In this document: piece after piece, positions 488 to 58,347 of the stretch | Layout: every line of letters begins with the position of its first letter | How positions within the stretch are numbered: position 1 is the first letter of the stretch | Assembly: GCA_964497805.1 (NCBI GenBank) | Contig: CAZCFB010000006.1 | Coordinates: 1,251 to 65,250 of the forward strand | Reading direction: 5' to 3' | Source of the DNA: an uncultured Kofleriaceae bacterium | Lineage (GTDB): Bacteria; Myxococcota_A; Polyangia; GCA-2747355; CAZCFB01 | DNA length: 64,000 nucleotides | Notes under the pieces: model-generated | Told to the model about the DNA's origin: nothing | The model's input: only the letters and a program-made list of their open reading frames with translations | Databases searched by the model: none | Program-made: the position numbers and the translations under genes

Positions 488-1869
<1,382 letters not shown>

Positions 1870-1871
1870 GA

Positions 1872-1917
1872 GACCGCCTGACATCCGTACTGGTCAAGCC
1901 CGCCGGGCCTGACTGCA
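1872..1917 (+). repeat. 46-bp direct repeat, copy 1 (duplicate of the 5' end of the radical-SAM CDS)
   Basis: gaccgcctgacatccgtactggtcaagcccgccgggcctgactgca matches 2139-2184 at 45 of 46 positions. The single difference (t1910 vs g2177) is synonymous (CCT/CCG Pro) in the shared frame. The offset is 267 nt, a multiple of 3. Confidence 0.95.
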
Positions 1918-1919
1918 TT

Positions 1920-2113
1920 AGCAAGCCAGCCAGGGCGCGAGGCCCCTGCTGGCTTGCTGCGAGCCTTCGGCTCGGCGTGGTTTTTAGCCGGGCGGGGCCC
2001 CGGGGTGGCCGGGCGGGGGGCCCGGCTGCGCCGCCGGGGCCAGGTCTGGCTCGCCTCGTCTTCTCGCCTGGCGGCGCCAGGCTTGGGCCGGGGGCCGCGA
2101 CCGCGCCCCCGGC
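1920..2113 (+). repeat. Structured four-hairpin intergenic repeat module, copy C (expanded version)
   Basis: H1 is agcaagccagc...gctggcttgct (1920-1958). H2 is cgagcc-ttcg-ggctcg (1960-1975), followed by gcgtggttttt. About 80 nt of extra GC-rich hairpin sequence follows. H3 is gcctggcg-g-cgccaggc (2066-2082). H4 is gccggggg-N11-cccccggc (2087-2113). The architecture matches the copies at 26438-26544 and 28815-28923. Confidence 0.8.
1960..1986 (+). terminator. Intrinsic-terminator-like hairpin plus T-run downstream of the two-component operon
   Basis: A 6-bp GC stem with a ttcg loop (cgagcc ttcg ggctcg) is followed within 5 nt by ttttt. A T5 run is rare in this GC-rich DNA. The site lies about 90 nt after the regulator's stop codon. 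Confidence 0.5.
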
Positions 2114-2129
2114 GGGCAGGAGCCTTCTA

Positions 2130-3278
2130 GTGCCGCTCGACCGCCTGACATCCGTACTGGTCAAGCCCGCCGGGCCGGACTGCAACATGTCCTGCGAGTA
2201 CTGCTTCTACCTGGAGAAGGCGGCGCAGTTCGAGGGCGCCGGCCACCGGATGACCGAGGAGGTGCAGCGGGCCATGATCCGCGAGGCCATGCGCGCCGCG
2301 GACGAGCAGGTGATCTTTGTCTGGCAGGGCGGTGAGCCCACGCTCATGGGGCCGGGCTTCTTCGAGCGGGCGGTTGAGCTGCAGATGAAGTTCGGCCGGG
2401 GCAAGACGGTGGGCAACGCCCTGCAGACCAACGGCCTGCTGCTGGATGACCGCTGGGTGCGCCTGTTCAGCCGCTACCAGTTCCTCATCGGCATCTCCAT
2501 CGACGGCCCGAATCGGGTCCACGACCACTACCGCCGGCGCCTGGGCGGGCAGCCGTCTCACGCCCGGGCTGCGGCGGCCACCCGCCGGCTGCTGGGGGAG
2601 GGGGTGGCGGTCAACGCGCTGTCCGTTGTGAACGACCACTCGGTGAAATATCCCCGGGAGATCTACAGCCACCTTCGGGGTCTGGGGCTGGCGCACCTGC
2701 AGTTCATCCCCTGCGTGGAGCCGGCGGCGTTCCGGCCCTCACCCGAGGCGTACGGCGACTTCCTCTGCCAGCTGTTTGATGTCTGGACCCGGGACTTCCG
2801 GGGGGGCGTCCCCGCGGCCACCGTGCGCAACTTCGAGTCCCTGCTCCACCTCTACGCCGGCCTGCCCGCGCCCGAGTGCACGCTCATGGAGAGCTGCGGC
2901 GTGTACCTGGTGGTGGAGCATGACGGGGGCGTCTACCCGTGCGACTTCTATGTGGAGCCGGAGTGGCGGCTGGGGGACGTGAGAAAAGACAGCCTGCTGG
3001 AGCTGCTCAACGGGGAGCGGCAACGCGAGTTCGGCGCGCTAAAGGCCCGGCTGCACCCGCTGTGCGAGGAGTGCTCCTATCTGGGGCGGTGCCTGGGAGG
3101 CTGCACGCGGCACCGGCCGGCGCCGGAGGGGTTGAACCTGTACTGCGAATCCTTCAAGGCGCTCTTTCAGCACGCGGGGGAACGCATGGAGCGCATGGTG
3201 GCGCACATGCGGGAGGATCCTGTTGAGCAGAAGCCAGCGCCGAAGCGGGGGAAACGGAAGCGGCGGAGGAAGAAGTAG
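2130..3278 (+). CDS. Radical SAM/SPASM maturase, anaerobic sulfatase-maturating-enzyme-like
   Basis: The N-terminus LVKPAGPDCNMSCEYCFY carries the CX3CX2C motif, followed by GGEPTL. The C-terminal SPASM-type Cys clusters are CGVYLVVEHDGGVYPCDFYV and CEECSYLGRCLGGC. I place the start at GTG 2130, preceded by caggag 8 nt upstream. The ORF track extends to ATG 1866, but that stretch is the duplicated and inserted segment. Confidence 0.85.
   Translation: MPLDRLTSVLVKPAGPDCNMSCEYCFYLEKAAQFEGAGHRMTEEVQRAMIREAMRAADEQVIFVWQGGEPTLMGPGFFERAVELQMKFGRGKTVGNALQTNGLLLDDRWVRLFSRYQFLIGISIDGPNRVHDHYRRRLGGQPSHARAAAATRRLLGEGVAVNALSVVNDHSVKYPREIYSHLRGLGLAHLQFIPCVEPAAFRPSPEAYGDFLCQLFDVWTRDFRGGVPAATVRNFESLLHLYAGLPAPECTLMESCGVYLVVEHDGGVYPCDFYVEPEWRLGDVRKDSLLELLNGERQREFGALKARLHPLCEECSYLGRCLGGCTRHRPAPEGLNLYCESFKALFQHAGERMERMVAHMREDPVEQKPAPKRGKRKRRRKK
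2139..2184 (+). repeat. 46-bp direct repeat, copy 2 (inside the functional 5' end of the radical-SAM CDS)
   Basis: See copy 1. This copy continues into the intact CNMSCEYC cluster motif. Confidence 0.95.
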
Positions 3279-3301: not shown

Positions 3302-4096
3302 CTACCACTTGCTGCAGAGGCAGGTGGCGTGTCTGAAGCCTTTGCTGCAGCTGGCGCCGTTGCTGTAGCTGCACTTGTTCCCCCCGCTGGTGTCCCAGGC
3401 GCCCATGCACGCGTGCTTCTTGCATAGCTTGCTGCAGGAGGCGGAGTTCCAGGCTCCCTCGTCGTGGTAGAAGCGGCACGTGGTGGCCGTCTCGGCGCAC
3501 AGCTTGTAACCCTTGGTGTCGTTCTGGAACAGCTGAGCGCAGGTGGGCAGGGGGAAGATGTCGGGGGGTCCGGGGACCACGTCCGTGGCTGGCTTCAGGT
3601 CCTTGGGCTTCATGTCCGGCCACGCCTTGACGTCGGGCGCGGGCGCGAAGTCGGGGAAGAGGACCGACTTGTCGGGCTTGGCCATGTCCTTGAACGACTT
3701 GTCCACCGCGGGCCACAGGTCCGGGGGGTCCACCCACTGATCCGGCGTCGATGTCTCGGGCCCCACGGCCAGGTCGGTGGGGGGCGCGTCCTGCGAGGGC
3801 AAGTCAGTGGGGCCCTGGTCGTGTACGGGAAGATCGACCACGGGCAGGTCGTGTACGGGCAGGTCGACCACGGGCAGGTCGTGTACGGGCAGGTCGACCA
3901 CGGGCAGGTCGACCACGGGCAGGTCGTGCACGGGCAGATCGATCTTCGGCAGGTCAGAGCCTGTGTCCGGCGAGTCGGTGCCCTGGTCCTCGGGATACCC
4001 CGCGGTGCCGTAGGGCGCGCCGGAGGTGTCAAAGATGCACCCGCCCAGGAGAGCGAGCAGCATGGCGATGAAGATCAAGCGCAGCATCAGGACCAC
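3302..4096 (-). CDS. Lipoprotein with a (D-L-P-V-H/V) pentapeptide tandem array and a 10-Cys C-terminal domain (function unknown)
   Basis: The signal peptide and lipobox are MVLMLRLIFIAMLLALLGGC. About 9 DLPVx repeats follow. The C-terminal ~85 aa contain 10 Cys (CAQLF...CAETATTC...CSKLCKKHAC...CSYSNGASC...CLC). It is the last gene of the minus-strand unit and converges on the rSAM gene with a 23-nt gap. Confidence 0.7.
   Translation of the reverse strand: MVLMLRLIFIAMLLALLGGCIFDTSGAPYGTAGYPEDQGTDSPDTGSDLPKIDLPVHDLPVVDLPVVDLPVHDLPVVDLPVHDLPVVDLPVHDQGPTDLPSQDAPPTDLAVGPETSTPDQWVDPPDLWPAVDKSFKDMAKPDKSVLFPDFAPAPDVKAWPDMKPKDLKPATDVVPGPPDIFPLPTCAQLFQNDTKGYKLCAETATTCRFYHDEGAWNSASCSKLCKKHACMGAWDTSGGNKCSYSNGASCSKGFRHATCLCSKW
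3818..3952. repeat. 15-bp tandem repeat, 9 units (encodes the DLPVx array)
   Basis: The units alternate gtcgtgtacgggcag and gtcgaccacgggcag, read directly from the sequence. Confidence 0.95.
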
Positions 4097-7802: not shown

Positions 7803-9006
7803 GACCGACCTCCAGGGCCTCAAGACCCTCCTCGTCACCACCGAGTACCCGCCTGATCCGGGAGGGGTGGGGGTTTCCAGCCAGCGCATCGCGCGGCTTC
7901 TGGCGGGCCTGGGCATGGAGGTTTCCGTGGCCCATGTGCGGGTAGCGGATGGGCCGGTGCTGCTGGACGAGGCGGTGACCACGGAGCGGGATGGGGAGGT
8001 GGAGGTGTTGCGGCTGGACCAGTCGCTCCAACCCGGGCTGGGGGATCCCATGTTCGACCGGGCCCACCAGGTCATGCGCGGGCGGCAGGAGCTGTTCCAG
8101 CTGTTGCTGCGCCTGCAGCGGGAGCGGCGCTTCGACGTGCTCAACGGGCTCTTCCTCACGGGGGTGGGCCGGGAGGTTTGCGCCGTGGCTCACCTCACCG
8201 GGGCCCGGGCCATGGTCTCCATCCGGGGCAACGATGTGGGCAAGCACTTCTTCCGCGATGAGCTGGTCGGGGTGCTGCGCTACGTGCTGGAGCGCGCCCA
8301 CCTGGTCACCTCGGTGGGGCGGGACCTGCTGGAGCTGGCGGGCACCATCTGCTCCCTGGAGGGCAAGGGCCTGGTGATCCCGAACAGCGTGGACCCGACC
8401 CTGGCGCCCGCCGCGGCGGAGCCCGTTCCTGACGGCCCGCTCCTGCTGGGATCCCACGGCATCTTCCGCTTCAAGAAGGGGATCCCGTACCTGTTCAAGG
8501 CCGCCGCCGGGCTGCGGGAACGGGGTATGGATCCGCGCCTGTTGCTGGTAGGCGGGACCAGGGACGCGCGGGAGGACGAGGTGCACCGAGGGTTCATGTC
8601 CCGGTTCGGCTTCAATGAAGCGTCCGTGGAGACTACGGGCCCGTTGCCCAGGCGGGAGGCGGTGGCGAGGCTGGGGCGGGGAACCAGCGTGGCGGTCTAT
8701 CCGTCCCTGTTCGGCGAGGGGTGCCCCTCCACGGTGCTGGAGGCCATGCTCCTGGGGCTCCCGGTCGTGGCCAGCGAGGTGGGTGGGATCCCCGAGCTGA
8801 TCCGCCACGGTGAAACCGGGATCCTGGTTCCTCCGGGCGACGGGCAAGCCCTGGAGCGAGCCCTGGCAAAGCTGGCCGGGGATCCAGTTCTGCGCCGGGC
8901 AATGGGGGACGCCGCCCGCCGCGCGGCCCTGGATCGTGGCCCGGAGGTTGAAGCCGCCGCCTGGTCCGACGCCTACCGCCGGGTGATGGCAGGTCATGCA
9001 GCCTGA
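7801..9006 (+). CDS. Glycosyltransferase family 4 (GT-B)
   Basis: N-terminus MTDLQGLKTLLVTTEYPPDPGGVG. The C-terminal EGCPSTVLEAMLLGLPVVASEVGGIPELI is the E-x7-E region. The ATG at 7801 overlaps the divergent start at 7802. Confidence 0.85.
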   Translation: MTDLQGLKTLLVTTEYPPDPGGVGVSSQRIARLLAGLGMEVSVAHVRVADGPVLLDEAVTTERDGEVEVLRLDQSLQPGLGDPMFDRAHQVMRGRQELFQLLLRLQRERRFDVLNGLFLTGVGREVCAVAHLTGARAMVSIRGNDVGKHFFRDELVGVLRYVLERAHLVTSVGRDLLELAGTICSLEGKGLVIPNSVDPTLAPAAAEPVPDGPLLLGSHGIFRFKKGIPYLFKAAAGLRERGMDPRLLLVGGTRDAREDEVHRGFMSRFGFNEASVETTGPLPRREAVARLGRGTSVAVYPSLFGEGCPSTVLEAMLLGLPVVASEVGGIPELIRHGETGILVPPGDGQALERALAKLAGDPVLRRAMGDAARRAALDRGPEVEAAAWSDAYRRVMAGHAA

Positions 9007-12000
9007 CAACCAGGGCGCTCTCCTGCTGGTGGCCGACGTGCAGCGGTTCTGCACCCATGACGGGCCGGGCCTGCGCACGGTGGTCTTCCTCAAGGGGTGC
9101 CCCCTGAGCTGCCGCTGGTGCCAGAACCCCGAGACCATCTCCCCCCGACCGGAGATCGCCTTTTACGCCCACCGGTGCGCCGGCTGCCAGAGGTGCGTGG
9201 ACGTGTGCGAGGCGGGGGCGCTCTCACCCCGGAGCTTCCCGTTGCAGCGTGACCGGTGCCGGGCGTGCGGCGCCTGCGCGCGCGTGTGCCCCCACGAGGC
9301 GCGGAGGCTGGTTGGGGAGCGCGTGAGCGCGGAGCGGCTGGCGAAACAGGTCCTGGCGGATCAGGCGTTCTTCCAGGCCTCGGGGGGCGGGCTCACCCTC
9401 TCGGGCGGAGAGCCGCTGGTCCAGCACCGCGCCGCAGCCAGGCTGCTCCAGCTGTGCAAGGACGTTGGAATCCACACGGTGATCGAGACCAGCGGCGCGG
9501 TGAGCTGGGCCGCGTTCCAGGCTGTGCTGCCCCACACCGACCAGTTCTTCCTCGACATCAAGGCGGGCGGGCCCGGCCTCCACGGGGAGCTCACCGGCAG
9601 CGACGGGCAGCAGGTGCGCGCCAACGCGCTCCGGCTGTTGGAGGCCGGCGCCGAGGTCACCTTCCGTATGCCGGTGGTGCCGGGGCACAACGACAGCGAG
9701 CGGAGCGTGGCCTCGGTGGCCCAGTTTCTCCTGGAGCTGGGCCGGCGGGAGGTGCGCCTGCTGCGCTACCACGCTGGGGGCCAGGCCAAGGCGGCGGCGA
9801 TCGAGAGCGAGCTGCCCGGTCTGGAGATCAACGCGGAAGAGGCCGACCGCGCGCTCGCCCGGGTGGCCAGGCTGATGTCAGCCCACGGGGTGGAGGCGCG
9901 AGTGGAGGGGGAGGCGCGGCCAGTGGAGCAGGCGCCGGCCTCCGAAGATCCGTTCACCCCTCGGGTGCGGCGGCTGCGGGACACGGTGCAGGCCACCAGG
10001 CCGGGGGTCTGCGCCGAGCGGGCCCGCATCGTCACCGGCTACCACAAGGATCGCGTCAACCGGAACAAGCCGGCGGTCATCCAGCGGGCCGAGGCCCTGT
10101 GCCAGGTGCTCCGCCGGCGCACCGCGAAGATCTATCCGGACGAGCTGCTCGTGGGCAACTTCAGCTCGCGGCGGGTGGGCGGCTCGATCTTTCCCGAGCT
10201 GCACGGCGTGGCCCAGCTGCTGGACCTGCACAAGCTACAGACCCGTGAGGTGAACCCGCTGGAGATTCGCCCGGAGGATCGCGCCGCCCTGGTCCGCGAG
10301 GTGCTCCCCTTCTGGGCCACCCGCCACCTGGCCGCCCGCGCCTTCCCCCTCCACCAGGCGCCCGGCTTCTACAGGGAGTCTCTCGACTCCCAGAAGTACC
10401 TGATCAACGAGGCCAGCGGCATCTCTCACTTCGTGCCCGACTACGAATTGCTGCTGCGCGAAGGGACCAGGGGCATCGCGCGGCAAGCGGCTCGGCGACG
10501 GGAGCGCGCGGCGGATCAGGCCTCGCGTGATTTCTATCTCGCCGTACAGATCGTGTGCAGGGGCGTGGAGGCCATGGCCGCCAACCTGGCGCGGGAGGCT
10601 CGGGACATGGCCCCGCGGGAAGGCGACGCGGCGCGGAGGTCCGAGCTGGAGGAGATCGCCCGGACCTGCCAGCGGGTCCCGGCCCAACCCGCCGCGACCC
10701 TGCGCCAGGCGCTCCAGTCGTTGCTGCTGGTTCAGATCGCCCTGAACCAGGAGAGCCTGGACAACAGCGTCTGCCCGGGGCGGCTGGACCAGCTGCTCTG
10801 GCCCTACTACCAGGCCGACCTGGATCGCGGCGAATTGACGCGCCGGGACGCGGCCGAGCTCATCGGCTGCTTCACCGTCAAGATGAGCGAGATCATCCCG
10901 GTCTTCTCCAGCTACGTCACCCGGTTCCACGGCGGCATGTTCAACGGCCAGGTGGTGGTGGTTGGCGGCCAGGACCGGGACGGGAAAGACGCGGAGAACG
11001 AGCTGACCCACATCTTCCTCGACGTCATGGAGCGGCTGCGGATGCGGCAGCCCAACTTCCACGCGCGCCTGCACCGGGGGAGCACCGACGGCTACGTGCG
11101 GCGGGTGGCCGCCGTGCTGCGTGGCGGGAGCGGCGCCCCCTCGCTCATGAACGACGAGGTGGTGGTGCCCATGCTGCGCTCCCGGGGCATGACCCGCGGC
11201 GACGCCCTGGACTACAGCCCGGTGGGGTGCGTGGAGCCGGTCTCGTGCGGCCGAACCTTCGGGTCCACCGACGCCGCGCTCACCAACGTTGCCCGCTGCC
11301 TGGAGTGGGCCCTGGGCACACGGCGGGGCGGCGCGCGCACCCCTGCTCCCGGCGAGCTCTCCTCGGCGGACGCCCTGTTCAGCGCGTTCGAGGCGCAGGT
11401 GGAGCACCTGGTGGCGAGGCTCATGCGGCACCTCCAGCCCATCGAGTTGGCCAACGCCCGGTTCCACCCCACGCCGCTGACCTCTGCCCTGCTGCAGGGC
11501 TGCCTTCAGGCGGGGCGCGACGCATCGGCCGGCGGCGCGCGCTACAACGCCAGCGGGGTCCAGGCCGTGGGGCTGGTGGATGTGGCCGACTCCCTGGCGG
11601 CGGTGGCCGAGGTGGTCTTCCAGGCCAGGCTGTGCAGCATGGCCACCCTGATCCGGGCGCTGAAGAGGAACTTCGCCGGGTACGGCTGGCTCCAGGGGCA
11701 CCTGGCGCGGGCGCCCAAGTTCGGCAACGACGAGCTCGTGGTGGATGGCTGGGCCGACGCGGTGATGGGGGCCTTCGCCGGCGCCCTGTCCCGGTACGAG
11801 AACACCCGGGGCGGGCCCTACCTGGCCGGTTTCTATTCGGTGACCAGCCACGCGGCCTTCGGCGAGCATGTGGGCGCGCTCCCCTCGGGGCGGCCGGCGG
11901 GGGCGCCCCTGGCCAACGGCCTGTCTCCGGCCGACGGCATGGATCGGCAGGGCCCCACGGCGGCGCTCAGCTCGGTGGCCCGCCTGGACCTGGTGGGCAA

Positions 12001-12295
12001 GGCGAAGAACGGGATCACCGTCAACCTGAAGCTGGATCCCACGGCCCTGCCGGGGGGGGAGGAGGGCGTGGACGCGGTGTCCTCTCTGATCCGCGGTTAC
12101 GCCGGGGCGGGGGGGATGCAGGTCCAGCTCAACGTGATGGATCCCGCTGTGCTGCAGGAGGCGAAGGAGCACCCGGAGCGGCACCCCTGGCTGCTGGTGC
12201 GGGTCTCGGGCTACAGCGCCTACTTCGCGGACCTGGCGCCGGGGGTGCAGCAGGAGCTCATCGATCGGACCTGCCACAGGGGCGCGCTGAGCTGA
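8996..12295 (+). CDS. Fusion protein: glycyl-radical-enzyme activating enzyme (aa 1-~300) joined to a PFL2-class glycyl radical enzyme (aa ~320-1099)
   Basis: The activase part has GCPLSCRWCQNPE (CX3CX2C at C35/C39/C42), two ferredoxin-like motifs (CAGCQRCVDVC, CRACGACARVC) and GGEPL. An Ala/Glu/Pro linker spans about aa 301-319. The GRE part has the catalytic loop VGCVEP (Cys745, codon 11228-11230) and the glycyl radical motif RVSGYSAYF (Gly1072, codon 12209-12211). It is one uninterrupted 1099-codon frame. Confidence 0.85.
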   Translation: MQPDNQGALLLVADVQRFCTHDGPGLRTVVFLKGCPLSCRWCQNPETISPRPEIAFYAHRCAGCQRCVDVCEAGALSPRSFPLQRDRCRACGACARVCPHEARRLVGERVSAERLAKQVLADQAFFQASGGGLTLSGGEPLVQHRAAARLLQLCKDVGIHTVIETSGAVSWAAFQAVLPHTDQFFLDIKAGGPGLHGELTGSDGQQVRANALRLLEAGAEVTFRMPVVPGHNDSERSVASVAQFLLELGRREVRLLRYHAGGQAKAAAIESELPGLEINAEEADRALARVARLMSAHGVEARVEGEARPVEQAPASEDPFTPRVRRLRDTVQATRPGVCAERARIVTGYHKDRVNRNKPAVIQRAEALCQVLRRRTAKIYPDELLVGNFSSRRVGGSIFPELHGVAQLLDLHKLQTREVNPLEIRPEDRAALVREVLPFWATRHLAARAFPLHQAPGFYRESLDSQKYLINEASGISHFVPDYELLLREGTRGIARQAARRRERAADQASRDFYLAVQIVCRGVEAMAANLAREARDMAPREGDAARRSELEEIARTCQRVPAQPAATLRQALQSLLLVQIALNQESLDNSVCPGRLDQLLWPYYQADLDRGELTRRDAAELIGCFTVKMSEIIPVFSSYVTRFHGGMFNGQVVVVGGQDRDGKDAENELTHIFLDVMERLRMRQPNFHARLHRGSTDGYVRRVAAVLRGGSGAPSLMNDEVVVPMLRSRGMTRGDALDYSPVGCVEPVSCGRTFGSTDAALTNVARCLEWALGTRRGGARTPAPGELSSADALFSAFEAQVEHLVARLMRHLQPIELANARFHPTPLTSALLQGCLQAGRDASAGGARYNASGVQAVGLVDVADSLAAVAEVVFQARLCSMATLIRALKRNFAGYGWLQGHLARAPKFGNDELVVDGWADAVMGAFAGALSRYENTRGGPYLAGFYSVTSHAAFGEHVGALPSGRPAGAPLANGLSPADGMDRQGPTAALSSVARLDLVGKAKNGITVNLKLDPTALPGGEEGVDAVSSLIRGYAGAGGMQVQLNVMDPAVLQEAKEHPERHPWLLVRVSGYSAYFADLAPGVQQELIDRTCHRGALS

Positions 12296-24898: not shown

Positions 24899-26395
24899 TC
24901 AGTGGATGCGCTTGTAAGGGGAGTAACCGCCCGCGTCCCGGCGGATGCGGGGCCGGAACACCCGGGCCGTGCGGGGGGGGACCTTCAGGTGCAGGGTGCC
25001 TGCGCGCACCCGGGTCCGGGATCGGCTCAGGGCGTCGTGCAGCACCTCGTCGTTCATCAGCCGCGCCTCGGGCATGGGGATGACCTCGCTCACCGTTGAG
25101 GCGCCTGCGTTGACAACCACCAGCACCAGCTCATCCAGGCGGTCCGTGGCGCGGATGAAGCAGAGCAGCTCCCCGGCGGGCACTACACGCAGCTCACCCA
25201 CGCGCAAGGCGCGGGCGTCGGCGCGCAGCCGCAGCAGCCGCCGGGTCCAGGCCAGCTCCTCGTTCTCCCTGTTGACCAGGTCCCACCGCATGGGCGCGCG
25301 CATCTCCGGGTCGTCCCCCCCCTCCATGCCCAGCTCGCTGCCGTAGTAGATGCACGGCGATCCGGGCAGGGTGAGCTGCAGCAGCCGCGCCATCCGACGC
25401 TGCCAGGGCCGGCGCAGCACGGTGTTGATCCGCGGGGTGTCGTGGTTGTCCAGCACGATCCAGCTGCGCAGCAGCGGTGCGAGGCCCGCGTCCGCCCGCG
25501 CCGAGGCCAGCATTCGCCCGGCCTGATCACCGCCCATATCCCGCCGCAGCAGGTGCAGGATGATCTGGCGAAAGTGGAAGTTGAGCAGGCCGTCCAGGGG
25601 CGCGCTCCGCTCCCCCTCCCTCTGGCACCAGGCGTCCGGGTAGCTCCAGATCTCACCCAGCACCAGGCTGCTCGGCTTCTCCTCGTGGGCCGCCTCGGTG
25701 ATGCGGCGCAGGTTGCTCGCGCCCAGCTCATAGGCCACGTCCAGGCGCCAGCCGTCCACGCCATCCTCCCGCAGGTAGCGGCGCACCACCGAGCCGGGGC
25801 CGCCGCAGATATTGGCCCGCACCGCGGGATCTTCCCACTTGAGCTCGGGCAGGTTGGCCACGTCGGCCCAGCAAAGCACCCCGCCGGGAGATTCCGGTTC
25901 CGGGGTGAACATGGACGGCGCCTCCTGGACCCAGGGGTGGCGGCGGCTCACATGGTTGAACACGCCGTCCAGCACCAGGCGCAGGCCCGCCTCGTGGCAC
26001 CGCCCGGCCAGGTCCCCCAGGTCCTCCCGCCCGCCAAACTCCGGGGCCACGTTCAGGTAGTCGGTGGTGTCGTACTTGTGGTTGGTCAGCGCGTCAAAGA
26101 TCGGGTTCAGGTAGAGCACCGTGGCGCCCAGGTCGCGCAGATGACCCAGCCGCCCGGCCAGGCTGGCCAGGTCTCCGCCCCAGAACTCCAGCTCGTGGCT
26201 CCAGACCCCCTCCGCCTCCAGGTAGCGGCCGCGCCGGGGCTGCTCCTCCCACCTGCGCAGCCGCCTGGGCGGAGCGTACAGGTGCCGCTTGATCTCCAGG
26301 TCCGCCGCGGGGGCGAAACGATCCACCATCACCTGGTAGACGACCGCGCCGGCCCGCCAGTCAGCTTCAAGTTCGTCGAAGGTGTTGGTTCCCAT
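24899..26395 (-). CDS. GH13 alpha-amylase-family glycoside hydrolase
   Basis: DGVFNHV, the nucleophile region DGWRLDVAYE, the acid/base region VLGEIWS, and VLDNHDTPR. I chose the start at ATG 26395 (MGTNTF...). The longer ORF-track form would overlap the upstream kinase gene. Confidence 0.85.
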   Translation of the reverse strand: MGTNTFDELEADWRAGAVVYQVMVDRFAPAADLEIKRHLYAPPRRLRRWEEQPRRGRYLEAEGVWSHELEFWGGDLASLAGRLGHLRDLGATVLYLNPIFDALTNHKYDTTDYLNVAPEFGGREDLGDLAGRCHEAGLRLVLDGVFNHVSRRHPWVQEAPSMFTPEPESPGGVLCWADVANLPELKWEDPAVRANICGGPGSVVRRYLREDGVDGWRLDVAYELGASNLRRITEAAHEEKPSSLVLGEIWSYPDAWCQREGERSAPLDGLLNFHFRQIILHLLRRDMGGDQAGRMLASARADAGLAPLLRSWIVLDNHDTPRINTVLRRPWQRRMARLLQLTLPGSPCIYYGSELGMEGGDDPEMRAPMRWDLVNRENEELAWTRRLLRLRADARALRVGELRVVPAGELLCFIRATDRLDELVLVVVNAGASTVSEVIPMPEARLMNDEVLHDALSRSRTRVRAGTLHLKVPPRTARVFRPRIRRDAGGYSPYKRIH

Positions 26396-26437
26396 GCCGG
26401 CTATTGTATCAGCCGTGAGATCGGGGCGAATGGAACA

Positions 26438-26544
26438 GCCGGGCATTCGGTGCCCGGCCACAGCCTGGCGAAGCCAGGCGAAAGGACAAGGAGCCGAAGG
26501 CTCAGAGCTGAGGCGGCAGGGCGAAGGCCCTGGCGTCTCAGCTC
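26438..26544 (-). repeat. Structured four-hairpin intergenic repeat module, copy A (compact, 107 nt)
   Basis: Read on the minus strand. H1 is gagctgag-acgc-cagggc-cttc-gccctg-ccgc-ctcagctc. H2 is gagcc-ttcg-gctc followed by ttgtccttt. H3 is gcctggc-ttc-gccaggc, then the spacer tgt. H4 is gccgggca-ccgaa-tgcccggc. H1 overlaps the stop codon of the upstream kinase gene. Confidence 0.85.
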
Positions 26545-27191
26545 TTCGTGGGCGACCAGGACGCCTCGCGCAGGAAGCTCTCGTTGAGGTACGCCTTCTC
26601 GATGACCTGGGCCATCTCCTCCGCGTCGCGGAAGTTGTCCCAGTCCACACGGATGGTGGGGATGGTCCTGGAGATGTCCCGGATGAAGATCTCGTACTGG
26701 TCGTACAGAGCCTTGAGGTATTCCAGGGTGAGGCCGCCCTCCACGTCCCGTTGGCGCTTGAGCACCCGCTCCATGGAGACCTCGGGCTTCACGTCGAGGT
26801 AGATGATCACGTTGGGCCGGCACATGAAGTTGCTCATGTGGCGGAACAGGTCCACGTAGGTGCGGTAGTCCCGCTCGTCCATCAGCTCCAACTTGACCAG
26901 CATGCGGGCGAACACCGCGTCCTCATAGATGGTGCGGTCCTGTACCCCGCCCTCGCCCTTCCAGATCACCTCCTGGTGCTGCTGGAAGCGGCGGTTGAGC
27001 AGGTAGATCTGAGTCGCGAAGCTGTAGCGCGCCGTGTCCCGGTAAAAGTCAGCCAGGTACTCGTTGTCCGCCACCGGTTCGTAGTAGACCGGCAGGTCCA
27101 GGTGGCTGCCCAGGGCCGTGGCCAGTGTGCTCTTGCCAGCGCCGATGATCCCGGCGATGCCGATGAACATTTTCGAGAGGGTCGATTCCAT
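26538..27191 (-). CDS. Deoxynucleoside kinase (dCK/dGK family)
   Basis: P-loop IGIAGIIGAGKST, YYEPVADNEYLADFY and the ERS-like region DRTIYEDAVFA. Confidence 0.85.
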   Translation of the reverse strand: MESTLSKMFIGIAGIIGAGKSTLATALGSHLDLPVYYEPVADNEYLADFYRDTARYSFATQIYLLNRRFQQHQEVIWKGEGGVQDRTIYEDAVFARMLVKLELMDERDYRTYVDLFRHMSNFMCRPNVIIYLDVKPEVSMERVLKRQRDVEGGLTLEYLKALYDQYEIFIRDISRTIPTIRVDWDNFRDAEEMAQVIEKAYLNESFLREASWSPTKS

Positions 27192-27236
27192 GGGGGGATG
27201 ATAATGAGTTGAGAGCCGAGAGTCGAGAGGCGACAG

Positions 27237-27274
27237 GCTGAAGCTGAAGCTGGAGCTGGAGCTTCAGCTTCAGC
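27237..27274 (-). terminator. Perfect 15-bp-stem hairpin 2 nt after the stop of the upstream (minus-strand) gene
   Basis: gctgaagctgaagct - ggagctgg - agcttcagcttcagc. There is no clear U-tract, so this could be a terminator or an RNA-stabilising hairpin. Confidence 0.5.
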
Positions 27275-27276
27275 TG

Positions 27277-28038
27277 TTACTGGTGCTGCGGCTGAGGCCG
27301 CGGCTTGGGCTTGCGCTTTTGCTGTTGCAGACGCTGCTGCTCAAGCTGCTGCTGCTTTCGGCGCTGGAGTTCAAGCAGCCGCTTCCGCTTCAGCTGGAGC
27401 TGCCTCAACTTCTCCTTCCGCTTCTTTTCGCGCGCCTTTCGCTCCTTCTCCTTCTTCTTGGCCGCCAGGCGCGATGCCTTGATGCGCTTCGATACCTTGC
27501 TGCTCACACCCAGGCGCCCCCGCTTGTAGACCCAGGAGTTGCGTACCTGCTTGTTGGCGCGCGACACATAGTGTCCGAACCCGGCCGTGTTATTGAACGG
27601 GCCAGCCGCCGCCACCGCGGCCGCCTGTCTGCCCCTGCCGAACCAGGACCGTTTCAGGGCCAGCATCCTGAAGCGAGCCCGCTTCCACATGCGCCGCCAG
27701 TAGTTGCGCTGGTTGTTCTCGCGCCGCTCCATCTGCTTCAGCTTCTGGCGCCGCGCCTTCTGCATGGACAGGTGCTGTTTCACCGTGGCGGTGAAGCGCT
27801 TGGCGCCGGAGTACTTGCCTCGCTTGGAGAGCTTGCCGAAGTAGAAGCTGGCCCGGCGGCACATGGGGATGTCCGGGGTGCGCTTGCACAGCTGGATGAA
27901 CTGCTTGAAGGTCTTGATCTTCTTGCCCCAGGTGTTCTCCGATGTGGCCCGCGCCTGGGCGGATCCCTCCGCCAGGATGAAGGCGCCTGCCAGGGCAACG
28001 CAGACGATCACGGCGCGGAGTTGCGACTTCAAGACCAT
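27277..28038 (-). CDS. Secreted, extremely Lys/Arg/Gln-rich hypothetical protein
   Basis: The signal peptide is MVLKSQLRAVIVCVALAGAFILAEGSAQA. The C-terminal third is a charged, coiled-coil-like tract (KKKEKERKAREKKRKEKLRQLQLKRKRLLELQRRKQQQLEQQRLQQQKRKPKPRPQPQ). Confidence 0.55.
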   Translation of the reverse strand: MVLKSQLRAVIVCVALAGAFILAEGSAQARATSENTWGKKIKTFKQFIQLCKRTPDIPMCRRASFYFGKLSKRGKYSGAKRFTATVKQHLSMQKARRQKLKQMERRENNQRNYWRRMWKRARFRMLALKRSWFGRGRQAAAVAAAGPFNNTAGFGHYVSRANKQVRNSWVYKRGRLGVSSKVSKRIKASRLAAKKKEKERKAREKKRKEKLRQLQLKRKRLLELQRRKQQQLEQQRLQQQKRKPKPRPQPQHQ

Positions 28039-28077
28039 ATCCTCTCATACCTCTTAATGGCGCCCAGAATCAAGGGC

Positions 28078-28794
28078 TCACCTCAGCGACAGCCCCCCGT
28101 CCACGGTCAAGATGGAGCCGGTCTGGTACGCCTCTCCGGCCAGGAAGCACACCGCCCGCGCCACATCTCCAGGCTCGCCGCGCCGCCCCATTGGCACCCG
28201 GGACTCCAGCCGCCGAACCTGCTCCGGGTCCATGTCCTCGGCAGGCAGCACCAGCCCCGGCGTCACCCCGCACACCCGCACCCTCGGCGCCAGCTCCAGG
28301 GCAAGGCAGCGGGTCAGCATCTCCAGGCCGGCCTTGGCCACGCAGTGGTGCGCGTACCCCCGCCACGGCTTGCGCGCCGCCAGGTCCAGCACGTTGATGA
28401 TGGCCCCGCCCTCCGCCATCCCCGGGGCGATCCGCCTGGCCAGGGCCGCCGGAGAGAGCAGCACCAGCTGCACGGTCTGTTGCCAGAGCGCCTCGTCCGC
28501 CTCCAGGAAGCCCTGCCGGGTAAAGGCCGCCGCGCTGTTGACCCACACCGCCACCGGGCCGCCCTCCAGGGAGAGCACCTCACGGGCCAGGGCCTCGGCC
28601 CCCTCCGGGCGGGAAAGATCCGCGGCCACGGCCACCGCCCGCCGGTCCCCCCGGCACAGCTCACGCGCCTGCTCCTCCGAGCGGTGGTAGTGCACCACCA
28701 CCCTGGCGCCCCGGGCCTGCAGCTCCTCCACGATGGCCCGGCCCAGGCGGCGCGCGCCCCCGGTCACCACGGCTAGCTTGTCTTTGAGGTCCAC
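28078..28794 (-). CDS. Short-chain dehydrogenase/reductase (SDR); possibly pteridine-related given the divergent folE
   Basis: The cofactor motif is VTGGARRLGRAI, and NSAA and CVAKAGLEML regions are present. The pteridine link is inferred from context only. Confidence 0.75.
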   Translation of the reverse strand: MDLKDKLAVVTGGARRLGRAIVEELQARGARVVVHYHRSEEQARELCRGDRRAVAVAADLSRPEGAEALAREVLSLEGGPVAVWVNSAAAFTRQGFLEADEALWQQTVQLVLLSPAALARRIAPGMAEGGAIINVLDLAARKPWRGYAHHCVAKAGLEMLTRCLALELAPRVRVCGVTPGLVLPAEDMDPEQVRRLESRVPMGRRGEPGDVARAVCFLAGEAYQTGSILTVDGGLSLR

Positions 28795-28814
28795 GGTGGG
28801 CAGAATACCACGAT

Positions 28815-28923
28815 CAGTGAAGCCCCCGAGGCAGGAGCCCCGGCCGCTTCACTGCGGGCCTTCGGCCCGAATCGTTGTTTCGCCTGGCGCCGCCAGGCTG
28901 TGGCCGGGCGCCGAACGCCCGGC
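28815..28923 (+). repeat. Structured four-hairpin intergenic repeat module, copy B (compact, 109 nt)
   Basis: H1 is cagtgaagc...gcttcactg (9-bp perfect stem). H2 is cgggcc-ttc-ggcccg followed by aatcgttgttt. H3 is gcctggcg-c-cgccaggc, then the spacer tgt. H4 is gccgggcg-ccgaa-cgcccggc. The module ends 40 nt upstream of the folE ATG. Confidence 0.85.
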
Positions 28924-28963
28924 AGATCATTGGAGTTCGCAAGCCACTTGGAGGAGTAGCACC

Positions 28964-29533
28964 ATGCTCGACAAAGCAGCCATCGCCCAGGCAGTGGAGC
29001 GCCTCCTCACCGCCATGGAGCTGAACCCCGAAAGCGCGGACTTTGCCGAGACCCCGGCCCGGGTGGCCGAGCTCTGGACGGCCGAGTTCCTCTCCGGATA
29101 CGACATGGATCCCAAGGAGATCCTGGCCAACCCCATCGAGGGCGAGGCCGATCCGGACGCGGTGTTTGTCACGGATCTCACCTTCCACTCCATGTGCCCC
29201 CACCACCTGCTGCCATCCCGGGGCCGGGCCCACGTGGCCTACATCCCGGACGGGCGCCTGGTGGGCTTCGGGCGCGTGGCCAAGCTGGTGGCCTGCTACA
29301 CACAGCGGTTCACCCTGCAGGAGCGGGCCACCCACCAGGTGGCCAACGCCCTGATGACCTTCCTCTCCGCGCGGGGGGCCGGGTGCGTCATGGAGTCCGA
29401 GCAGCTCTGCCTGGCCATCCCCGGTGACAAGCACCAGAGCAGCCGCGTGCTGACCAGCGCCTTCGCGGGCGAGTTCCGCGAGCGGGAGGACCTGCGGGCC
29501 AGGCTAATGGCAGCCGCGGGCCGCTCCGGATAA
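28964..29533 (+). CDS. folE: GTP cyclohydrolase I (FolE type 1)
   Basis: TPARVAELW, FHSMCPHHLLP (Zn-binding CxHH region), FTLQERAT. I place the start at ATG 28964, preceded by ggagga. Confidence 0.9.
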   Translation: MLDKAAIAQAVERLLTAMELNPESADFAETPARVAELWTAEFLSGYDMDPKEILANPIEGEADPDAVFVTDLTFHSMCPHHLLPSRGRAHVAYIPDGRLVGFGRVAKLVACYTQRFTLQERATHQVANALMTFLSARGAGCVMESEQLCLAIPGDKHQSSRVLTSAFAGEFREREDLRARLMAAAGRSG

Positions 29534-36605: not shown

Positions 36606-39254
<2,649 letters not shown>

Positions 39255-56871: not shown

Positions 56872-58347
56872 CTACTTGATCAGCACCCCGTCAAGGTCCC
56901 GCAGCTGCGCCTTGCCGTGGGCGGCTTCCAGCGGCTCTCGGATCTTTGCCAGGTCCCCGGCCACGGCGATGGTGGCCTTGCCCGCTCGAACCAGGCGGCG
57001 GGCGGCGGCGGTGACCCTGGCCGCGGTGAGGGCGCTCACCTCCCCTGCCAGGCTGTCCAGGCGGCTGAGGGGGAGGCCGTTGAGGGCCAGGTCGGCATGG
57101 GCCTCCACCAGGCCAGCCACGGTTTCGGCCCGTGCTGGCTGCTCCTCCACGAGCAGGCGCTTTGCCTTGGTGAGCTCGGCGCTGGTGAGCGGGCGGGAGA
57201 CGGCGCCCTCCAGCTCCTTGAGGATCTCAACCAGCGCGGCGGCGGTGTCCTCCGTCTCCACCGATGTGGAGGTGATGAACATGCCGCCCGCGCGTCGGGT
57301 CAGGAACATGGAGCGGACGCCGTAGGTGAAGCCGTGCTCCTCGCGCAGGTTTTGGTTCAGGCGGCTAGTGAAGCTGCCGCCCAGGACGGTGTTGAGCGCC
57401 TCCATGGCCGCGTACATCTTGGTGCCTCTGGCCGGGCCCAGGTGGCCCACCCTGATGACGGACTGGGTGGCGCCGGGCCGGTCGACCAGCACCAGGCGGG
57501 GGCCGCCGGCAGGAGGATTGGCTGGTTTAGGTGGGGCAGGGGGCTTCCCCTGCCAGCCCGTGAGGCGCTGCTCCAGCAGGGCACGCAGCTCTGCCGCCGT
57601 GATGTCCCCGGCCGCGATGACCATGGCCCCCTCCGGACGGTATCGCTCCTGGTGGAACTGCTTCACCCGCGCCGGGGTGATGGCCGCGAGCCAGGCCAGA
57701 TGGGGCAGCACGGGCCGGCCGTACGGGTGGTCGCCGAACACGGCGGACTTCAGGGCCAGGTGGGCGATCTGGGCTGGCTTTGCCCTGCGCTGGGTCACCC
57801 GCCCGCGGAGTTGCCGCTTGAGCCGGTCCAGCTCTCCGCCGGTGAGCCGTGGCCGCAGCAGGGTGTCGGCCAGCAGCTCCATGGCGGTTTCAAGGTTCCG
57901 GCGCAGGGTGGCCAGCTCCAGCTGCGCGTGGTCCTGATCCACCCAGGAGACCAGGGTGGCGCCAAGATCCTGCAGCGCCCCGGAGAAGGCCAGAGCTGAA
58001 CGCTTCCCCGCGCCCCGCTCAAGCATGTTGGCCGTGATATGAGCCAGGCCCGGAACCTTGGCCGGGTCCGCGCCGGAGCCGCCGTCGAAGGCCACGCGGA
58101 TGCGCACCAGGGGCAGGTCCGGCCGCGGGATCAGGATCACCCGGACGCCGCTTTTCAGGCGGAACCGTTCTGCCCGGGGGAACTTGAACGTGGCGGGGGG
58201 GCCCAGGCGGGGTTGCTTGTTCATGAAAGCGGGGATTGGGGTGGGCTTGGGGGTCACGGTTGTACTCCTCTGGGGCAAGGGTCGAGGGGTGCAGGCAAGG
58301 AGGGCCAGGGCCGGGGCCAGGGCCAGGGCCAGGGTTTTACTTCCCAC
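56872..58347 (-). CDS. M16-family peptidase-like lipoprotein, probably the non-catalytic partner
   Basis: The lipobox is ALALLAC. The sequence is M16-like, but the zinc-motif position reads HITANMLERG, so there is no HxxEH. It overlaps the upstream M16 gene by 11 nt. Confidence 0.7.
   Translation of the reverse strand: MGSKTLALALAPALALLACTPRPLPQRSTTVTPKPTPIPAFMNKQPRLGPPATFKFPRAERFRLKSGVRVILIPRPDLPLVRIRVAFDGGSGADPAKVPGLAHITANMLERGAGKRSALAFSGALQDLGATLVSWVDQDHAQLELATLRRNLETAMELLADTLLRPRLTGGELDRLKRQLRGRVTQRRAKPAQIAHLALKSAVFGDHPYGRPVLPHLAWLAAITPARVKQFHQERYRPEGAMVIAAGDITAAELRALLEQRLTGWQGKPPAPPKPANPPAGGPRLVLVDRPGATQSVIRVGHLGPARGTKMYAAMEALNTVLGGSFTSRLNQNLREEHGFTYGVRSMFLTRRAGGMFITSTSVETEDTAAALVEILKELEGAVSRPLTSAELTKAKRLLVEEQPARAETVAGLVEAHADLALNGLPLSRLDSLAGEVSALTAARVTAAARRLVRAGKATIAVAGDLAKIREPLEAAHGKAQLRDLDGVLIK

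Follow-up and report, generated by a model that had tools for sequence, protein, structure and literature searches.

A four-hairpin structured repeat of probable REP/BIME type at gene borders in uncultured marine Myxococcota

A module of about 115 nt that folds into four hairpins occurs three times in the stretch of DNA analysed here, a 64,000-nt part (positions 1,251 to 65,250, hereafter the window) of contig CAZCFB010000006.1 from the uncultured Kofleriaceae bacterium assembly GCA_964497805.1. Our best explanation, to which we assign a probability of roughly 0.55, is that the module is a lineage-specific, insertionally polymorphic and non-coding structured interspersed repeat of uncultured marine Myxococcota, of the type of REPs (repetitive extragenic palindromes) and bacterial interspersed mosaic elements (BIMEs), and that it acts as a single-stranded nucleic acid. 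It belongs to the same reading, at the same probability, that the module is not part of the regulation of the adjoining genes and was added to spacers and gene ends after close relatives had diverged. The observations that carry it are family membership, covariation, a strand asymmetry of the wobble pairs, mixed orientation towards genes, empty orthologous sites and strain-level variation.

The three loci in the window, copies A, B and C, are present as the initial annotation of this DNA described them (Table 1). In its orientation the module reads, from 5' to 3', a long hairpin H1, a short GC hairpin H2, a T-rich tract, a hairpin H3, a TGTG or TTGG spacer and a hairpin H4. We call 'top' the strand on which the hairpins are under selection, for which that description gives the reverse complement; the order on the top strand is 5'-H4'-CACA-H3'-GAAAAAACAAG-H2'-H1'-3'. 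H3 is the palindrome CGCCTGGC-N2-3-GCCAGGCG, found within the 64 kb at copies A, B and C only, and on the top strand H3' is the invariant palindrome GCCTGGC-N3-GCCAGGC. The sequence is conserved in H3' and in the stem base of H4', and only the shape in H1' and H2'. H1' forms one continuous helix of 17-18 bp on the top strand.

Four further copies (D to G), each carrying the complete module, were found by scanning other sequences with the H3-H4 pattern. The species-representative genomes gave one true relative, copy D, on a contig of a metagenome-assembled genome; the metagenome scan gave copies E, F and G, all in the whole-genome shotgun set PVBE01. That scan returned at least 60 stretches, with three true copies among the matches listed and the rest coding or chance matches; the collection is no census, and the window's own contig is not among its matches listed. 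The seven loci thus assembled come from at least four sources, and a covariance model built from them scores its members at 98-132 bits. The covariance-model scan that the initial annotation had proposed recovers copies A and B in the window at 98-101 bits (E ~1e-17) and copy C as two parts of 74.5 and 47.5 bits. It detects no further copy in the 64-kb window, none in the further 17 kb of the contig outside it, and no other copy among the other 54 fetched metagenome loci. One locus, L018 (481-607, 35 bits), was excluded from the family as a different GC-rich repeat; it holds an H3-like palindrome, GCCTGGCGTCGCCAGGC, inside the long-range inverted arms GGCTGTCATCCCGG ... CCGGGATGACAGC.

The initial annotation had argued from three copies that the hairpins are maintained by compensatory change, and shuffle tests on the seven-copy alignment now support this statistically. 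The expected pairs are formed in 95.7% of the alignment cells against 86.2% in shuffles, and double compensatory changes affect 17 of 40 pairs against 7.7 in shuffles; none of 500 shuffles reaches the observed value in either test. Slid controls of the alignment reach only 29-49% pairing, and the fold z-scores of the copies range from -3.8 to -8.7. H3 is invariant, and the covariation is found in H1 (12 of 18 pairs), in H2 and in the pairs that close H4. A search of Rfam, also suggested at the outset, matched no family at gathering thresholds over the 64 kb, and the permissive E-value mode gave nothing credible over 26300-29100. Viral contigs scanned with the H3-H4 pattern gave 0 matches, and blastn against plasmids gave a single chance match of 50 nt in Streptomyces. 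Six-frame translations of six copies, used as a concatenated protein query, had no match at E <= 1 among 8000 word candidates, and the frame-b translation of copy B had 0 matches against 1.84 billion protein representatives. We also considered and dropped a group II intron domain 5 or a retron, for which there was no Rfam signal, and a sigma-54 promoter in H3, for which the GG-to-GC spacing is off by one.

The strand on which the hairpins act can be told from their imperfect pairs. On the top strand there are 14 G.T and 0 A.C among the non-Watson-Crick pairs (binomial p = 1.2e-4), at no fewer than nine distinct positions and spread over all copies, and in the orientation of the initial annotation the same pairs become A.C instead of G.U. 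Pairing reaches 95.7% of the cells on the top strand and 90.6% on the bottom strand. In all seven copies the top strand is also the more stable one, the difference being 5.1-8.4 kcal/mol under RNA parameters and 1.0-5.9 kcal/mol under DNA parameters. With RNA parameters, top against bottom, we obtained -77.0/-68.6 kcal/mol for A, -73.6/-68.0 for B, -83.8/-78.7 for D and -79.0/-70.8 for G, and the folds of canonical C, E and F were compared with DNA parameters. The 14:0 asymmetry together with the better folding indicates that selection on the hairpins operates on the reverse complement of the strand first described. It follows that H2 with its T tract, initially likened to an intrinsic terminator, sits on the unselected strand. 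The likeness holds as far as a loose terminator-consensus scan goes, which flags H2 plus T tract at A and B, but the tracts are weak (5 T per 8-10 nt) and B has no co-oriented gene upstream. On the selected strand H2' is preceded by an A tract without a following U tract, and no U tract follows H1'.

Close relatives with the same gene order do not carry the module at sites A, B or C, where their flanking proteins are 72-94% identical to those of the window; what they have instead is listed in Table 1. Over ~56 kb of the relatives' DNA the covariance model finds no copy. Since these orthologous sites are empty, the module is not a conserved part of the regulation of those genes. The PVBE01 metagenome, in which copies E, F and G lie at other loci, also contains one of the relatives' contigs at 94% identity, and the insertion sites thus appear to differ among close relatives. 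The window's contig (81-99 kb) has been assembled from several marine metagenomes, and dNK homologues at ~79% identity are named Myxococcota.

The spacers of this lineage deserve some description of their own. Short tandem arrays of 6-7-nt units are frequent in them, namely (GAGAGTT)n, (GGCTTGA)n, (AGAGCC)n in ~11 copies, (GCTGAA)n and (AGGGCC)n. They were seen in L065 at 2188-2228, downstream of dNK in L082-L084 and L078, and in the window at 37250-37321, 27237-27263 and 58301-58334. At sites A and C the relatives' arrays occupy the spacers which in the window hold the module, and spacers with such arrays look like hot spots of turnover. L078, from the window's metagenomes, has a dNK 92% identical and a DUF222/HNH endonuclease gene (246-1556) two genes upstream of it; its differing gene order at this identity indicates that a second related species co-occurs in the samples. 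The window also encodes, at 27277-28038 on the minus strand, a 253-aa protein extremely rich in Lys, Arg and Gln, with an N-terminal signal-like segment and no Pfam match, whose gene keeps its position between the SDR and dNK genes in the relatives.

The module had been described as always lying just upstream of the next gene and co-oriented with it. The spacing to the next start codon was given correctly, being 16 nt at C, 41 nt at A and 40 nt at B, and co-orientation is true of the three window copies; outside the window it holds for D but not for E, F and G, three of the four. Three out of three in the window is what small numbers allow. With the flanking genes checked by Pfam and by translation, the selected strand is sense to them at four copies (B, E, F and G) and antisense at three (A, C and D). 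The neighbouring genes are functionally unrelated, those downstream in the window being rSAM, GH13 and folE.

These data bear directly on the function first proposed, a leader, attenuator or processing element in which H2 and the T tract would work as a terminator/anti-terminator switch at the 5' end of the transcript. Covarying hairpins ending 16-41 nt before a co-oriented start codon, with a match to the terminator consensus at A and B, are what such an element would look like, but E, F and G point the other way, the downstream genes are unrelated, and orthologous genes in the relatives do without the module. In addition, Rfam has no match, the T tracts are weak, and by the evidence of the wobble pairs it is the opposite strand whose folding is maintained. 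We therefore regard the cis-regulatory explanation as largely refuted and highly improbable. A sense RNA useful to the host, i.e. an intercistronic mRNA stabiliser, a processing site or a terminator that has been recruited repeatedly for its usefulness, is favoured by the very stable hairpins and by the four of seven copies at which the selected strand is sense, within or after operons. The A-rich linker GAAAAAACAAG also resembles what we take to be an (ARN)n Hfq-type motif, as a candidate. Such a role is contradicted by the three antisense copies, by the lack of a U tract after H1' on the selected strand and by the relatives whose same operons have no module, and we consider it quite improbable. 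Wobbles restricted to one strand, combined with mixed orientation towards genes, suggest instead that the interspersed repeat acts as a single strand, most likely of DNA, a mixed orientation to transcription making a single-stranded DNA role likelier than an RNA role.

Copy C shows that the element varies among strains. About 80 extra nt had been noted in it, and they are present as 79 nt after H2 but are strain-specific: in L068 and L069, assemblies of the same population, site C holds a canonical copy of 121 nt scoring 128 bits (L068 11434-11554). At copy C the window differs from the JGI contig Ga0105000_1000524, so that it represents a separate strain or assembly from one population. Scaffold_447 of SUTE22-1 has a different insert with an N scaffold gap at this site, and contig Ga0105013_1011951 breaks off within the element. 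On the top strand the insert in the window consists of a spacer, H4'' (GCCGGGC-CCCCC-GCCCGGC), CACC, H3'' (CCGGGGC-CCC-GCCCGG) and an A-rich linker. A 6-nt direct repeat, GGCTCG (1969-1974 and 2048-2053), delimits the insert, which contains a tandem-repeat call at 1987-2041; its mosaic arrangement of units is reminiscent of BIMEs. The 79 nt also place an upstream ATG (1866) in the rSAM reading frame across the entire element, so that the open reading frame (ORF) 1866-3278 has 88 extra codons before rSAM and no stop; the canonical version has a distance of 185 nt, which is out of frame.

Table 1. Copies of the module, associated features and the corresponding sites in relatives. Positions are those of the window; strand refers to the top strand for the copies; the last column gives the sense of the selected strand towards the flanking genes.
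Feature	Position	Strand	Setting or content	Selected strand
Copy A	26437-26545	+	between dNK stop and GH13 start; covariance model 98 bits	antisense
Copy A, parts	H4' 26437-26457; CACA; H3' 26462-26479; A-rich linker 26480-26489; H2' 26490-26502; H1' 26503-26545	+	dNK stop TGA (26538-26540) inside the H1 outer arm; GH13 ATG 26395-26397	
Copy B	28815-28923	-	between divergent SDR gene and folE, upstream of the SDR gene; 101 bits	sense
Copy B, parts	H1 28815-28854; H2 28855-28869; T/A-rich linker 28870-28880; H3 28881-28898; H4 28903-28923	-	SDR GTG at 28794 (- strand), folE ATG at 28964 (+ strand); on the selected strand 20 nt from H1' end to SDR start	
Copy C (expanded)	1920-2113	-	between sigma-54 regulator and rSAM gene	antisense
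Copy C, parts	H1 1920-1958; H2 1959-1974; extra 79 nt 1975-2053; linker 2054-2064; H3 2065-2082; H4 2087-2113	-		
Copy C insert	1975-2053	-	second, divergent partial unit (alignment with L067-L069, fold)	
X' at copy C	1872-1917	+	extra 46-nt copy; abuts H1 with only TT between; preceded by ATGAGA (1866-1871)	
Current rSAM start	2114-2184	+	2114-2138: AGGAG, 7 nt, GTG CCG CTC; X = 2139-2184	
Copy D (L002)			after thiolase-ChsH2 genes	antisense
Copy E (L017)			between a '+' strand gene and a GT4 gene	sense
Copy F (L057)			between EutN and the next gene	sense
Copy G (L059)			after a UDG-family gene	sense
Site A in L074, L076, L077 (89%) and L082-L084 (94%)			different sequence, in part a (GGCTTGA)n array, enclosed by the conserved flanks AAGAGCTGAG and CCGATCTCACG	
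Site B in L074/L075 (dNK 89%)			67-nt spacer without the element	
Site C in L065/L066 (rSAM 87% identical)			41-nt spacer of (GAGAGTT)n	
Site C in L089, L090 (72-73%)			start of rSAM directly next to or overlapping the stop of the regulator	

At two of the seven copies, C and G, the element is accompanied by a duplicated piece of the adjoining gene. A 46-nt direct repeat with 45 of 46 positions identical (1872-1917 and 2139-2184) flanks copy C and corresponds to codons 4-18 of the rSAM gene; gene callers start this protein (P0001) at GTG 2130, and the arrangement is seen in four independent assemblies. Copy G is flanked by a perfect 42-nt repeat of the 3' coding end of a UDG-family gene. Both share one layout on the top strand: gene body, X, a version 2 terminus of 25-41 nt, the element, AA or AATT, X', a version 1 terminus and the neighbouring gene. 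At copy C version 1 starts with ATG AGA (MRDRLTS...), its ATG overlapping the stop of the sigma-54 regulator in GCATGA, which is the native arrangement in L090, and version 2 starts with MPLDRLTS, the orthologues having MPRDRLTS, MPPDLLTS and MTPLEPLTS. At copy G the two versions continue LRALGVEHP* and LRELGIG*, with the same amino acid in four of five codons written by different codons (empirical p = 4e-4), and terminator-like hairpins follow version 1. The element at C and G is thus situated between the current gene end and a displaced, truncated second version of it, and X' at copy C looks like the displaced version of the rSAM start.

No flanking repeat of at least 12 nt is present at the other five copies (A, B, D, E and F). 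At copy A the H1 outer arm AGAGCTGAG (26537-26545) belongs to the native gene end and is conserved in the relatives, which means a homology of 9-10 nt at the junction on the H1 side. H1' is followed in the different copies by AAT, AAT, AAAT, TAT, GAT, CAC or TCG. The 25-41 nt between H4 and the flanking repeat were compared among C, G and D as possibly homologous, and the idea was dropped (pairwise local alignments p > 0.16; 44% identity with MAFFT). Sequences beyond H4 are thus not significantly similar between copies, and the conserved element extends from H4' to H1' only. We likewise rejected X' as a guide or antisense segment placed 3' of a scaffold in the style of omega-RNA or crRNA, as it is antisense to its gene at C and sense at G, which leaves no consistent RNA target.

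The duplicated gene ends are unexplained by any REP, MITE (miniature inverted-repeat transposable element) or insertion sequence (IS) mechanism of the IS200/IS605 kind. One-sided homologous recombination with illegitimate joining of the hairpin end could have produced them; target-primed copying is a weaker alternative. Three further explanations of the element as a whole were considered. According to the first, the element spreads mainly passively and marks the ends of recombination tracts: incoming DNA from a related strain is degraded up to the hairpins, the gene segment pairs with its resident counterpart and the hairpin end is joined illegitimately, leaving the current gene end, the element and the displaced resident gene end in a row, as a miniature counterpart of integrative elements with surrogate gene ends. 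The layout common to C and G, the mostly synonymous differences between the G versions (LRALG and LRELG; empirical p = 4e-4), the likeness of both C versions to genuine gene starts (the GCATGA overlap as in L090, and MPL... as in the orthologues) and the 9-10-nt homology at copy A agree with it. It is weakened by resting on two loci, of which G is a single 2-kb contig (PVBE012631794.1), and no donor allele was seen; the first arrival at the unrelated loci A, B, D, E and F is left unexplained, and the similar repeat lengths (42 and 46 nt) and identical junction position suggest a step defined by an enzyme. We hold this possible, though unlikely.

The element could also be the working part of a new kind of miniature mobile DNA, in which a single strand enters gene ends by homologous pairing over 42-46 nt, brings a replacement end, displaces the resident end on the H1 side and has the end of the transferred strand defined by the hairpins; this seems to us rather unlikely. 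The remaining explanation is that a structured RNA of the top strand, trimmed at its 3' end to the foot of H1', is copied by a reverse transcriptase acting in trans, with long target duplications of variable length and a 5' flank derived from the donor. G.U-type wobbles on one strand only, sharp-edged flanking repeats of 46 nt (C) and 42 nt (G), and a precise H1' junction (AA or AATT) opposite an H4' side with 25-41 nt of non-family sequence would all fit, and myxobacteria are rich in retron reverse transcriptases. The contig has no reverse transcriptase Pfam, though, and Rfam gives no match to a retroelement RNA; five of seven copies have no flanking repeat and three of seven are antisense to local transcription. 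What has been brought in at C and G is another version of the end of that very gene, which points to a DNA exchange between homologous loci and away from random retroposition. We give retroposition little credence.

Comparison with known systems shows where the REP/BIME assignment fits and where it strains. Like the REP sequences and BIMEs mobilised by RAYT, a Y1 HUH transposase, the module is GC-rich and extragenic, has hairpins kept by compensatory change, lacks terminal inverted repeats and a short target duplication, and forms mosaic or tandem units (copy C); assemblies break at its copies, and it may serve as an exonuclease barrier at mRNA 3' ends. Unlike them, it combines four distinct hairpins in fixed order and orientation over ~115 nt, where REPs are alternating palindromes of 20-40 nt, and it has no conserved GTAG head, no RAYT among the contig's genes, and 42-46-nt repeats at two copies. 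The miniature derivatives of IS200/IS605, which move as single-stranded DNA, share with it strand-specific subterminal hairpins, selection on one strand and the absence of terminal inverted repeats, but there is no TnpA or TnpB nearby and their insertion makes no duplication. No conserved target motif of 4-5 nt lies beside either end of the module, seven copies being few for this comparison. The Correia/NEMIS, ERIC/IRU and Rickettsia palindromic elements are also structured non-coding repeats of 100-150 nt at gene borders that can alter gene ends, and copy C as found in the window lies in frame with ORF 1866-3278 as the Rickettsia elements insert in frame; they differ in having terminal inverted repeats and/or a TA or short target duplication, and the module has neither. 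MITEs of the DDE type have no counterpart in the features of the module either, with no inverted ends and flanks unrelated between the copies. The suggestion of a REP- or MITE-like mobile palindromic unit, originally the second choice, thus pointed in the right direction, but the defining features of classical REPs and DDE-type MITEs are missing.

The closest parallel to the duplicated ends is offered by integrative elements that provide a surrogate gene end, such as phage 21 and e14 in icd and islands in tRNA genes. They have the same succession of gene body, identical core, element-borne end, element, identical core and displaced native end as copies C and G, and no other copy, and the two versions differ at synonymous positions as at G. 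Those elements measure kilobases, encode an integrase and use one fixed site, whereas the module has ~115-160 nt, no coding capacity and unrelated target genes (the rSAM start and the UDG end).

Several observations weigh against the REP/BIME-type explanation. Among the called genes of the 81-kb contig there is no Pfam match to a RAYT/TnpA (Y1 transposase), reverse transcriptase or integrase; the trans-acting enzyme it proposes is hypothetical. Classical REPs are single hairpins of 20-40 nt present in hundreds of copies, and we have collected seven loci in all, at three copies per 81 kb. An insertion of the IS200/IS605 type leaves no duplication, and C and G have flanking repeats of 42-46 nt. 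Strand-biased mutation could also contribute to the wobble asymmetry, although the mixed orientation argues otherwise.

If the module is an interspersed repeat of this type, it would be handled in trans by an enzyme encoded elsewhere, following the logic of REP/RAYT and of the miniature IS200/IS605 derivatives. The contrast between the sequence-conserved H3' and H4' and the shape-only H1' and H2' suggests a protein-recognition module joined to structural hairpins, in which a protein may recognise H3'/H4' and H1'/H2' may contribute structure. Where the selected strand is transcribed (B, E, F and G), the hairpins might incidentally block 3' exonucleases, as REPs do.

Three other regions of the window may be mentioned. 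The rSAM/SPASM protein next to copy C (2130-3278) is similar to anaerobic sulfatase maturases and has a Lys/Arg-rich tail (…PKRGKRKRRRKK); its relatives at 72-73%, like the majority of other homologues, have a SEC-C zinc motif (PF02810) at the end instead. The region 3817-3955 has a 15/30-nt tandem repeat (4-8 copies, 82-91% matches) inside overlapping long ORFs and possibly encodes a repeat-containing protein. At 8996-12295 (+) a gene for a 1099-aa fusion of a radical-SAM activase-like domain and a PFL-like glycyl-radical enzyme lies in a cluster together with genes for glycosyltransferases, for sulfotransferases and for a sulfatase-maturase-like protein.

The module defines a family of structured interspersed repeats from marine Myxococcota that has not been described before and is missing from Rfam. 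It shows that covariation alone is insufficient to identify a functional RNA, as mobile hairpin repeats covary too, and its wobble pairs give an unusually clean signal of the strand of action. No known REP, MITE or IS200-type mechanism yields the layout seen at C and G. For this lineage, the element breaks metagenome assemblies and marks variation at the level of strains.

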